Of a DNA stretch of 64,000 nt, positions 421-57,303 are shown one piece after another (position 1 is the first letter of the stretch; every line of letters begins with the position of its first letter). The stretch is taken from NCBI GenBank assembly GCA_964016885.1, contig OZ024745.1, positions 106,020,001 to 106,084,000 of the forward strand, read 5' to 3'. The notes under the pieces were generated by a model, which saw only the letters and a list, made by a program, of their open reading frames with translations, had not been told where the DNA came from and ran no database searches. Both the position numbers and the translations under genes were made by a program. Source of the DNA: Eledone cirrhosa (taxonomy: Eukaryota).

Positions 421-831
421 AAAGACGTAAAATAAGAAAATAAAAAAAAATAAAAAAATTTTTTTAAATTAACTTACTTAAATGTTCACTCCAACTAATT
501 AGTTTCTGCAATGGGATAAAGACAGTTACGTAATCTAACTGTCAAGAATTCACTGCGTCATCAGGGAGTCTGATGACGCAATGAATTCTCGACAGTTAGA
601 TTACGTAACTGTCTTTATCCCATTGCAGAAACTAATTAGTTGGAGTGAACATTTAAGTAAGTTAATTTAAAAAAATTTTTTTTTTTTTTTTAATTTTCTT
701 ATTTTACGTCTTTTATATTATTGTTCTGCATCCTCCTGCATTGAACCACCTAGGTAGTATGACATAACCTGTGTATTTGCTGGCATTAGCGTACATCTGT
801 GTGCTTATGTTAGTAGATATATTAAATTATC
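421..831. mobile_element. Fold-back PLE-derived cassette with hammerhead
   Basis: Inverted arms 421-564 and 570-713 with few mismatches and a 5-nt spacer. The right arm continues as a unique tail to about 831. Flanked by TA tracts. Confidence 0.8.
488..569 (-). ncRNA. Type I hammerhead ribozyme
   Basis: Minus strand: ACTCC-CTGATGA-c-GCAGTG...CATTGC-a-GAAAC-taatta-GTT-GGAGT. Stem I ACTCC/GGAGT, palindromic stem III. The plus-arm copy (570-646) lacks the 5' strand of stem I. Confidence 0.8.
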
Positions 832-1028
832 TATATATATATATGTCAGTCTTCTGTCTTCCTGTCTGCCTGTCTATCTCTCTCACTCACTATCTGGCTC
901 TCTCTATCTCCCCCGTTATATATATATATATACACACACACACATACATACACACACACACACACACACACACACACACACACACACACACACACACACA
1001 TATATATATATATAGAGGAACCAGTAAG

Positions 1029-1122
1029 ACCCCGACGGCTGAGCTCAAGCCGTTTCGACGGCTAATTCTGGACTAAATGAAAATTTATCCTGGTATTTAA
1101 ATAGCCGAGCTTCTCAAGGGGT
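1029..1122 (-). ncRNA. Type I hammerhead ribozyme, U3-A8 core variant (mirror copy)
   Basis: Reverse complement of 1316-1409. Confidence 0.65.
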
Positions 1123-1315
1123 AATTCCATATATGGTCAAAGTGATTGTCAAGAGTCAGTAGTAATTCTGTGATTGCAAATTAGTAGGGGAGATGGTGGC
1201 TAAACCTGCCAGTAGGTGGCTAAACCTGGCAGGTTTAGCCACCATCTCCCCTACTAATTTGCAATCACAGAATTACTACTGACTCTTGACAATCACTTTG
1301 ACCATATATGGAATT

Positions 1316-1409
1316 ACCCCTTGAGAAGCTCGGCTATTTAAATACCAGGATAAATTTTCATTTAGTCCAGAATTAGCCGTCGAAACGGCTTGAGCTCAGC
1401 CGTCGGGGT
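1316..1409 (+). ncRNA. Type I hammerhead ribozyme, U3-A8 core variant
   Basis: ACCCC-TTGAGAA-g..CGGCTA...TAGCCG.c-GAAAC-GGCT-tgagctc-AGCC-GTC-GGGGT. All three stems pair and the cleavage triplet is GUC. Confidence 0.65.
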
Positions 1410-1627
1410 CTTACTGGTTCCTATTACCCACTCTACTACTCTAAGTATTGAGTACTTTGGTGCGTTATGGTCCACCTGGTTCCTTACCACATTTCCTTCG
1501 TTATATATATATATATATATATATATATATATATATATATATATAATGGAAAAATTTGAACAGGAACAAAACAGAGAGGCAGTACAACGAATGTTTATTA
1601 ATTTCACGCTCTGGAGAGTGGGGTGAT

Positions 1628-1786
1628 ATAACTGTTTCTACTTTTGGCACAAGGCCAGCAATTATCCCAGTGCATTACTGGTACTTTATTTTATCGACCC
1701 CGTAAGGATGAAAGGCAAAGTTAACCTCGGCGGGATTTGAACTCAGAATGGCAAGGGCCGTAACTCTTTGCGTCAAAGCGTGAGGC
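1628..1786 (-). mobile_element. tRNA-derived SINE, family A (5'-truncated)
   Basis: B box GAGTTCAAATCC and central GCCTTTCATCCTTACGGGGTCGATAAAATAAAGTACCAG (resembles the Nin domain), repeated about 10 times in the window. Confidence 0.85.
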
Positions 1787-54850: not shown

Positions 54851-55271
54851 TGGGGCGTATGATCAGGGAGAGGAAGTAGGAAAGTCTGTAGTTACTAGCA
54901 ATGTTAGCTTCACAGACGTTGGTGGTCCTGTGACAGGGTCACTGCTCGTTTTATGGTCTTTTCGATGCCCATACAATGCTGGCACGTCATTGTTCCAGGC
55001 CTGGAAGTTCTTGGTAGACCAAAATTAAATAGAAAACATGAATGGAATAGCAACATCACAACTTACAATTAAGGACAAAATGAAAACACACCCACACATA
55101 GAACAAACAACTAACCAGTAACATGTAAATAAACAAATAAATAAACAATTATAAACACACACATACACCCGGAGGTAACACATGCGCAAACTAATCACAC
55201 AACACACACAAAAACAAGATGGCGTAGGATAGAACAAAGGAGAAGCACAACAACAAGGAAAAGAATCCCCG

Positions 55272-55314
55272 GTTACTGAAGAGGTCACATAATGTGTGAC
55301 GAAAGAACTTTGAC
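55272..55314 (+). ncRNA. Minimal hammerhead in the inverted pLTR
   Basis: GTTA-CTGAAGA-g-GTCACA-taatg-TGTGAC-GAAAG-aa-CTT-TGAC. Confidence 0.8.
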
Positions 55315-55467
55315 AATATATGAACAATCGTCTGGCTGTGGAACCAACCAACCAACCGGAAATTTATAAATTTAATTTATAATGAATTGAAGTGAAAGCA
55401 ACTGGTGTGTGTGTTTCTTATTGGCAACATGGCCCTCCCATAGCATAACAATATATATATATATATA

Positions 55468-55832
55468 TATTAAAATAACAGATTAACGTTTATGCAAAGA
55501 ATCGCTGCTTTCACCTTTAACGGGATCTTCTGAAACTAAAACAGTCAATATGTGAACGCAGAAGTAAATATTTCAAAAAACGTTGCAACCGAAGGAAGAC
55601 AGGAAGACGATACTTTGGTTTGTGGAAACGTTCCCTTGCAAAGAACGGAAAGAAACATTTACTGCGTTCACAGATTGACTTTTTAGTTCCAGAAGATCCC
55701 GTTAAGGGTGAAAGCAGCGATTCCTGGCTTAAATTTAATCTGTTATTTTAATAAATATTTGCTCTACGGTTCTTATATCTCTGATATATATTTATCCTTA
55801 TCGAGCCCTCTTTGGATTCTAGTTTTCAAATG
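55468..55832. mobile_element. Fold-back cassette with ~95-nt spacer and tail
   Basis: Imperfect inverted arms about 55468-55570 and 55667-55752, tail to 55832, (TA)n flanks. Confidence 0.75.
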
Positions 55833-56747
55833 TATTATATATATATATATATATATATATATATATGTGTGTGTGTGTGTGTGTATATATATGTGTGTGT
55901 GCGTGTGTGTGTGCATGGGATCCTACTCGTATATATATATATATATATATGAGTGGGATATTATGAGCCACCAGTAAGACGTTTTTAAATCTATTACAAA
56001 TAATATACCTGCAAGTAAAGCACGAGTGTTTAGAAAAAGGTAAGCTTGATTTGCGAATTGAATTAGACTTCACCGTAACTTTGACTAAGTAAAATAGTCT
56101 TATAATAAGTTATAAGACCACAGAAGATGAAAAGATGGACTTGAGTGCATATAGCAGTCCACCCTACACATCTTGTTTACTGGAAACGTGCGATTCCATT
56201 TACACCAATGCATCGACCCATATGCTTCCGTTAATTTAGAAGTCATAACTTAATAGCGATAGGTAAAGAAAGAATGCATATGTGTTTAGAAAGGGGGAAC
56301 AAAATAAAAAAAATGAATCGAAAACATTTGCCATAACCTTGAATAAATAAAAATTGAATCCTCGACTGTTGAACCTCAATTCTACCTTCACTACTCTACC
56401 ATCATAAAGAACTTCATAAAAAAAAAACATTATACGAAAAGAGATTTTGAAAGAAAATCCACAGAATATGAGAAAAGGCATTTTAAATATTTGAAACTGG
56501 TAATATTTGACAAGACTTAAATTCATTTAATATAGTAACTATAAAAATATTTATTCTGTCTGGTTAAAGAAAAGATAACCTTTAAATAAACTCATGTGGC
56601 TTTCCACTTTTAACCCACTCTCTCTATCTCTCTCTCTCACTCACTCTCTCTCTCTCTCTCCCCCTCTCTTTCTCTCTCTCTTTTCCCTCTCTCTCTCTAT
56701 GTATATATATATATATATATATATATATATATATATATATATATATT

Positions 56748-57303
56748 AGTGTATAGTGGAAGCTATGTTGCTTCTGTAGGCGGTATTCCAAAATTAGCAC
56801 TCGATATTCATCAGAGTAGAGTGTAGATATTATCAAGAAAATGAAAAATCAGTGATGCATCTGGATTGAGTTTATTTCGTGTTACAAATGTTTCGCCGGC
56901 ATGTAGCTCGAGTCATGGTCCTTGTATGGATCTGGCTGATTCTACTTCTGCGGGTTCTTTCAGACACGGGTGTTATGTCCGGAGCAAATTTTATCACTGG
57001 GGTGTTGTCATCAAAACAACCCATCAAAAAACCTTCTGTCCACTCTTGTCATGTCATTGGCTGTTTTTACTCCGCGTCATCACAAGGTCTGGTCAGTATC
57101 TGCTGCCACAGGGTTCATCAACCATTTCCCGTCCGACATATTTCAATGGTGTCATGCTGGGTTCAGTACTTCACACGTCTGCTCACACTTCAGAGTAAGC
57201 ACACACACATACTAATGACTCGAGCTACATGCCGGCGAAACATTTGTAACACGAAATAAACTAAGTCCAGATACATCACTGATTTTTCGTTTTCTTGATA
57301 ATA
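56748..57303. mobile_element. Fold-back cassette with ~300-nt spacer and tail
   Basis: Arms about 56827-56916 and 57215-57303, tail 56748-56826, (TA)n flanks. Confidence 0.8.
56878..56968 (-). ncRNA. Hammerhead-like motif with 1-nt core insertion
   Basis: CGTGT-CTGAAAGA-a-CCcGCA...TGCcGG-c-GAAAC-attt-GTA-ACACG. Confidence 0.55.

Follow-up and report, generated by a model that had tools for sequence, protein, structure and literature searches.

Fold-back hairpins in the Eledone cirrhosa genome are consistent with paired priming on RNAs of Penelope-like elements and a retrozyme

Introduction

Inverted copies of the pseudo-long terminal repeat (pLTR) with a tail, hammerhead ribozymes in the pLTR, and a link between retrozymes and Penelope-like elements (PLEs) are already known. 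Here we analyze a stretch of 64,000 nucleotides from Eledone cirrhosa (assembly GCA_964016885.1, contig OZ024745.1, positions 106,020,001 to 106,084,000 of the forward strand; hereafter the window), in which an earlier note had described eight inverted-repeat cassettes. Our results indicate that the cassettes are ends of PLEs and of a retrozyme, and suggest that they were inserted by way of two complementary DNAs (cDNAs) primed on one uncut RNA.

The closest described systems are compared here through those sections of the cited papers that deal with element structure and insertion. According to these sections, the way in which PLEs come to be repeated in tandem and in inverted orientation, with a tail on one side only, is undefined (PMC8557442), and the later steps of PLE insertion are left open (PMC11167929). 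In vitro, both target strands are cut and extended by the Poseidon PLE enzyme, with reverse transcriptase (RT) starting from two sites that bound the tail on an uncut RNA template (PMC11167929), and the promoter of Drosophila virilis Penelope, with its initiator (Inr), has been located in the pLTR (PMC2377424).

The elements studied here resemble the Hydra-clade PLEs (PMC8557442) in having a short single open reading frame (ORF), the motifs RW(K/R) and DKT, a CxCx5C linker, a C-terminal GIY-YIG domain, a pLTR hammerhead, (TA)n targets, an inverted 5'-truncated copy and a one-sided tail. They differ in tail length (69-88 nt, against 30-40 nt) and in abundance, with five families and tens of thousands of copies here, whereas those sections report few Hydra families outside cnidarians; the sharp fold base at an initiator-like A that we report has no counterpart in their descriptions. 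Poseidon_Ac (PMC11167929) shares the two tail-bounding RT start sites, the cutting and extension of both strands, an AT-rich target and the uncut RNA. However, it belongs to another clade and its start sites lie inside the ORF, whereas ours lie before the ATG, and its insertion sections neither explain inverted copies nor map a 5' run-off. Penelope of Adineta vaga and D. virilis (PMC3846280, PMC2377424) likewise has head-to-head inverted pLTRs, an optional tail and TATA/Inr-like words in the pLTR. The explanation offered in PMC3846280 is self-priming on an antisense template, whereas our arm statistics favor two primings on sense RNA. Finally, the metazoan non-LTR retrozymes (PMC7229834; bioRxiv 10.64898/2026.07.22.740005) resemble one of our families, family A, in their short non-coding tandem arrays, the type I hammerhead in each unit and their co-occurrence with PLEs. 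The family A unit is longer (~555 bp, against about 170-400). In their sections on origin, both papers tie retrozymes to PLEs through co-occurrence and resemblance to pLTRs; family A itself bears the insertion signature.

Results

Cassette families and their parent elements

The eight cassettes are all present. Six were recovered by an inverted-repeat search of the window as directly abutting repeats (421-713, 1016-1422, 3940-4044, 16379-16748, 21237-21387 and 30967-31222), and two with longer centers, whose arms span 55471-55753 and 56828-57303, were read through sequence and family mapping. An additional tail, 69-122 nt long in family coordinates, extends one of the arms. The (TA)n flanks reported for most cassettes stand on both sides of those at 421, 1016, 3939, 16290, 55468 and 56748 (the right flank of the last is short) and on a single side at 21178; the cassette at 30966 has none.

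Exact-pattern searches across the 3.0-Gb genome, with reversed-pattern controls that returned 0 matches, gave 15,436 copies for family CE (cassettes 3939 and 21178), 23,521 for B (1016), 11,671 for G (55468), 4,282 for A (421), 487 for D (16290), 507 for H (56748), 327 for F (30966) and 860 for I (the element at 52630). Among the first 100 matches listed, close minus/plus pairs counted by eye numbered 18 for CE and 17 for B, which scales up to roughly 2,800 CE and 4,000 B hairpins with both arms exact. The main counts below come from a sample of 1.37 Mb in 320 loci, some of which overlap and almost all of which lie on contigs C1 and C2.

The cassettes are almost certainly of PLE origin, as the earlier note had proposed in attributing them to PLE machinery: parents with RT and GIY-YIG domains were found for six families, and five window families (1016, 3939/21178, 16290, 55468 and 56748) correspond to the terminal repeats that autonomous PLEs of the Hydra clade carry elsewhere in the genome. 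CE continues into an RT/GIY-YIG frame of at least 705 aa, unbroken at locus L123, and families B, D, G and H adjoin related frames. Some copies of CE, D, G, H and I run beyond the tail into the ATG and ORF, with 41-46 nt between the tail end and the ATG in CE, G and H. RT and GIY-YIG frames precede family B, and no B copy among the sampled loci continues beyond the tail into an ORF start. The RT and endonuclease (EN) pieces of B, D and G occur in separate or broken copies, and the RT half was translated for H. RWR and DKT motifs occur in CE, G and H, the frames of B and D having been examined without their N-terminus; the CxCx5C linker occurs in CE, B, D and G, the linker region of H lying outside its translated part. 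By these motifs, CE, B, D, G and H fit the definition of the Hydra clade given in the structure sections of PMC8557442: a single ORF with RT and C-terminal GIY-YIG, a pLTR hammerhead and (TA)n targeting. The Pfam match of the CE parent ORF is weak (GIY-YIG, E=0.019); its protein has 69 homologues at E<=1e-20, one of them named as a GIY-YIG endonuclease.

The element at 52630-55451 does carry RT and the layout ascribed to it earlier, with an inverted pLTR and a tail. Its family, I, has a CX4CxxC linker before the EN frame, a C-terminal GIY-YIG and an RVT_1 match (E=5.5e-5), and the linker makes it Neptune-like, with Nematis as another possible assignment. Family F was found through a pattern inside the repeat at 30966, the sequence beside that repeat being single-copy; in its relatives the type I hammerhead has a stem II of ~100 nt and most of them end in (CA)n, and 30966 is a decayed eighth family.

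Head-to-head pairs end at two fixed sites

Directly joined head-to-head pairs were collected when their arms were at least 20 nt long, at least 85% identical and ended at a family end, other insertions being uncounted. The resulting 182 pairs represent six PLE families, 178 of them Hydra. In 177 of the 182, one arm has a short end and the other a tail end. The short arm reaches at least 5 nt further 5' than the tail arm in 73 of these 177 and the tail arm does so in 34, while in 70 the two agree within 4 nt. Since either arm may be the longer and the ends are unequal, the pairs argue for two priming events. Among the 73 are 20 pairs in which a tail-only piece stands beside a longer short arm with no overlap between them (57769-57880 is an example in the window), and such pairs cannot come from a single self-folding cDNA unless a later deletion took place. 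Solo copies terminate either at the short site or at the tail site, so the short end is an RT start site in its own right.

Compared at polymorphic sites, the two arms carry the same variant in 514 cases and different ones in 73, against an expectation of 274 for arms drawn independently. A family D copy at L127 (G000:C1:52534000-52541000) has heavy sense-strand A>G change at 44 of 173 A places; all 44 changes are common to both arms, none is confined to one, and the changes continue into the ORF. The agreement between arms and the shared changes at L127 indicate that both arms derive from one template. The L127 copy looks like an RNA that was hyperedited by ADAR and then inserted; a family D-type copy at L283 shows heavy A>G change likewise.

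The earlier note had left room for a self-propagating miniature class, a view that the junctions do not bear out. There are 169 distinct junctions among the 182 pairs, and 7 junction sequences recur in the sample. The commonest CE junction has 493 copies genome-wide; in 40 of these the tail stands on one side 22 times, on the other 16 times and is absent twice, and the 40 span at least five variant backgrounds. This junction arose repeatedly, at a near-palindrome, and junctions are not inherited. Short stretches of microhomology or fill-in mark the joins. In 157 of the 178 Hydra pairs (TA)4 stands on both sides, and in the remainder on a single side.

In the tails of CE, B, D, G and H one word, TYGAGY, recurs in the interval from the short end to the tail end (for example at window positions 1445-1450 and 21223-21228), 46-66 nt before the tail end; it does not occur in families A and I. 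TYGAGY is a candidate protein-binding site.

Folds pile up at one base per family

We define the wall as a farthest 5' arm reach within -5..+4 of one A per family. By this measure, 121 of the 178 Hydra pairs fold at the wall (CE 26/37, B 55/65, D 21/38, H 14/23, G 5/15); of the others, 38 fold downstream of it, 7 up to 50 nt upstream and 12 beyond that. In pairs from loci that had not been fetched for the family concerned, the proportion is 31/46. Folds that pile up at one base per family are not random truncations. The choice offered by the earlier note, between truncation products and a retrozyme-like class, is thus too narrow, its second half holding for the cassette at 421, which comes from a true retrozyme. 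In the window, the cassettes at 3939, 16290 and 21178 and the insertion at 57769 fold at the wall, and those at 1016, 55468 and 56748 extend beyond it.

All five wall A's lie within the initiator-like word YYA[CGT][AT], which is no more than 1 nt away from 5-13% of the positions nearby. Upstream of the wall A stand the TATA-like words TATAAATA in CE (at 30 nt, or 33 in a second subfamily) and TATTTAAA in B (at 29-30 nt). The position of the wall relative to the hammerhead differs between families: it is the first base of stem I in CE and G, lies inside stem II in B, and is found ~20 nt upstream of the motif in H and 85 nt upstream in D. The wall A is likely to be a transcription start.

Family A is a retrozyme with a PLE insertion signature

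The unit of family A is non-coding (longest stop-free frame 55 aa), with a spacing of 556-571 nt and one type I hammerhead. Units are repeated in short tandem arrays, inverted copies occur, and the 3' ends fall at two fixed positions. By this layout, as read in the DNA, family A is a non-LTR retrozyme, and the cassette at 421 is a piece of it, a true non-autonomous retrozyme. Compared with the six PLE references, family A has no evident resemblance, and no parent PLE was found among them. Family A bears the PLE insertion signature, namely an inverted array, short and tail ends, and (TA)n. The same enzyme footprint on a retrozyme suggests, on structural grounds, that PLE enzymes move retrozymes.

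Hammerhead motifs

With a type I hammerhead descriptor (score >=7) and 20 dinucleotide shuffles of the window as background, we found 12 perfect-core motifs against a shuffle mean of 0.35 (maximum 2), and 17 against 3.4 (maximum 8) when one core deviation was allowed, in keeping with the earlier figure of about 16. As for the cassettes as ribozyme carriers, this holds for five of them, which contain 8 matches (one at 421, two each at 1016, 16290 and 21178, and one variant at 56748); the descriptor found no complete motif in those at 3939, 30966 and 55468. Most window hammerheads are not minimal, with stem II inserts of 12-61 nt. The Rfam check that had been proposed did not detect them: the covariance models gave no hammerhead among the window matches listed (150 of 226) and none in two sub-regions, which may reflect the long stem II inserts, and they scored the cassettes against miRNA models. 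Core variants occur in G and H, G having A in place of U4, and the U3/A8 core of family B is a tolerated hammerhead variant.

A fold at the ribozyme cut site was considered and rejected, as only 5 of 356 arms start there, and the hammerhead is likely a passenger in the insertion step. Because the family B wall falls inside stem II, cassettes of the usual B form are left without the catalytic core. At window positions 1330-1365, a TATA-like box and the predicted RNA start of family B both lie within the stem II loop, so that only read-through RNA would carry the whole ribozyme. Two further hammerhead families occupy the minus strand at 34185-34480, ending at (TA)n, and at 34840-34930, with perfect cores at 34395 and 34920.

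Arrangement of the window

The positions of the insertions are compiled in Table 1.

Table 1. PLE and retrozyme insertions in the window. Clade names follow protein motifs, and RNA starts are predicted.
Feature	Positions	Strand	Layout
Family A cassette (retrozyme, ~555-bp tandem unit)	421..831		Inverted short arm 421-569, containing a complete type I hammerhead (minus strand); sense arm starts at 570; tail 714-831
Family B cassette (Hydra-clade PLE end)	1016..1501		Arms 1016-1212 and 1226-1422, tail 1423-1501; U3/A8-core hammerhead in each arm; extends beyond the usual fold base of the family
Family CE cassette	3940..4112		Fold within hammerhead core, without complete motif; right-side tail
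Family I solo 3' end	13093..13676	plus	Hammerhead at 13467
Family D cassette (Hydra-clade PLE end)	16290..16748		Tail 16290-16378; each arm with a complete hammerhead; junction 16563/16564, 3 nt inside RNA start
Family CE cassette (Hydra-clade PLE end)	21178..21387		Tail 21178-21236; hammerhead in each arm; both arms start <=2 nt from RNA start
Family F, decayed fold-back	30967..31222
Family G solo short-ended copy (second)	42709-42829	minus
Family I, Neptune-like PLE	52630..55451	minus	5'-truncated; RT and GIY-YIG frames broken; inverted pLTR 55018-55451; tail 52630-52686; minimal hammerheads 52884 (-) and 55276 (+)
Family G cassette (Hydra-clade PLE end)	55471..55835		Right-side tail; both hammerhead motifs decayed
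Family H cassette (Hydra-clade PLE end)	56748..57303		Long tail-bearing arm on minus strand; short arm 57215-57303; 8-nt-core hammerhead variant at 56963 in long arm
Family G insertion, absent from the earlier list	57769..57880		Inverted tail-only piece and short-ended arm, without overlap; short-ended arm begins exactly at RNA start
Family G solo short-ended copy	58046..58293	plus	U4A hammerhead at 58233

Families are stacked end to end in one (TA)n run at window positions 52630-55835 and at loci L026, L119, L120 and L159, since TA targets are kept on both sides of each insertion. The center of the 1016 cassette (1193-1244) is a double fold, with a small hairpin nested at the junction, which suggests repeated priming or templated fill-in; similar fill-ins occur at family D junctions (L098 and L112). 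Elsewhere, a stop-free frame of 300 aa with a proline-rich part (36842-37744, plus strand) is possibly a host exon, and a frequent SINE-like repeat, which we take to be of the octopus type, occurs at L013, L309 and other loci.

Discussion

Our explanation of the mini-hairpins, which we hold with moderate confidence as a whole, is that they are ends of PLEs and of one retrozyme inserted into (TA)n by way of two cDNAs made on one uncut RNA. Both strands of the target would be cut and primed, for which the precedent in vitro comes from another PLE clade. The enzyme of the element would then prime two cDNAs on a single uncut RNA, one at each RT start site; PLE RTs are not known to have RNase H, so one RNA could be copied twice. 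Both cDNAs would run off the 5' end of the RNA and be joined head to head, presumably through microhomology or short fill-ins. With the tail end 41-46 nt before the ATG, a transcript from the pLTR promoter would have both start sites ~60-280 nt from its 5' end. By default, such a transcript would give rise to a strong-stop-like mini-copy in which two short cDNAs meet head to head. To make a full copy, read-through, tandem or circular RNA would be required. The cassettes at 1016, 55468 and 56748 would derive from the 3' pLTR of longer RNAs. As to the parts of this scheme, we have good confidence in two primings on one RNA, and a run-off at the transcription start is rather probable. The wider proposal, namely twin priming at fixed sites whose commonest product is a strong-stop hairpin from the transcription start to the RT sites, together with a promoter map, a TYGAGY protein site and a retrozyme footprint, has in our judgement about an even chance of being correct.

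Several points weigh against this explanation. The wall window was chosen after viewing the data, BLAST ends are good to ~4 nt, and the start site at the wall is a prediction from DNA sequence. Initiator and TATA consensus words are short; no TATA box was found in D, G and H, and the junctions show no consistent cap-derived extra G. The G wall is weak (5/15), and the G search pattern overlapped the start, which favors longer arms. The family I cluster is loose (8 of 30 copies), standing just before a word that we take to be YY1-like, and family A has no fold wall. Snap-back copying or gene conversion could account for the agreement between arms as well, and loss of sequence from the hairpin tip after insertion could make the short arm look like the longer one.

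The last two points lead to the view that one tail-primed cDNA folds back by self-priming (Arkhipova 2013), the second arm being a DNA copy and tip deletions adding the variation. Variants common to both arms and the 70 of 177 pairs with near-equal arms would follow directly, and palindromic junctions prompted the self-priming proposal in the sections of PMC3846280 on this subject. However, in 73 of the 177 pairs the short arm holds sequence that the tail arm lacks, with no overlap at all in 20, and solo copies that end at either site make the short end an independent start; we therefore judge self-priming improbable. One may instead accept two primings and read the wall as the place where RT is blocked, by RNA structure or within a pLTR intron at its 3' splice site or pyrimidine tract. 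Four of the five wall sites (CE, B, G and H) are indeed the A of a YAG after pyrimidines, the D wall follows a long pyrimidine tract, the wall coincides with the first base of stem I in CE and G, and in D. virilis Penelope the end of an intron coincides with the 5' boundary of hammerhead helix I (PMC4209133), facts that count against a transcription start. Yet the arms retain the AG, the sequence that precedes it is variable and not exon-like, the D wall lies 8 nt before its AG end, the position of the wall relative to the hammerhead changes from family to family, and the TATA spacing of CE and B suits a start site. We consider a block of this kind unlikely.

That the hairpins are a self-propagating non-autonomous class, MITE-like (miniature inverted-repeat transposable elements) or retrozyme-like and copied as units, could be argued from their thousands of copies, from the 7 recurring junctions and the CE junction found 493 times, and from the A>G hypermutated template, which implies that double-stranded RNA existed. 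This view is largely refuted and very unlikely: with 169 distinct junctions the pairs lack the fixed inherited junction of MITEs, even the commonest junction has its tail on either side and at least five backgrounds, the usual B cassette is devoid of a catalytic core, and no cassette contains sequence beyond the tail or an upstream promoter. The near-perfect palindromes could also recall fold-back artefacts of assembly or library, or DNA transposons with terminal inverted repeats, a reading made exceedingly improbable by the fixed unequal ends in 177 of 182 pairs, the TA flanks, the decayed old copies and the RT-bearing parents.

The insertion of two cDNAs from one RNA has parallels outside PLEs. 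In LINE-1 twin priming, two primers on one RNA produce an inversion, and in retroviral minus-strand strong-stop DNA, synthesis that starts close to the 5' end of the RNA yields a short run-off cDNA. Unlike these, both priming sites are fixed here and the arms often overlap, and the short cDNAs would already be attached to the target and so become insertions. In the literature searched, with supplements and subscription papers outside it, we found neither twin priming, strong-stop products nor start-site-bounded hairpins for PLEs, and likewise no start-site wall, arm statistics, tail word or PLE footprint on a retrozyme; supplements may bear on this novelty.

The cassette counts separate self-priming from two-priming models and predict exact RNA starts. 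They also suggest why most copies are tiny and why full ones need tandem or circular RNA. Thousands of such hairpins are open to mis-annotation as MITEs or microRNA precursors, and they could supply double-stranded RNA to editing and silencing. If the explanation is true, the genome of E. cirrhosa would be a base-precise map of PLE promoters.

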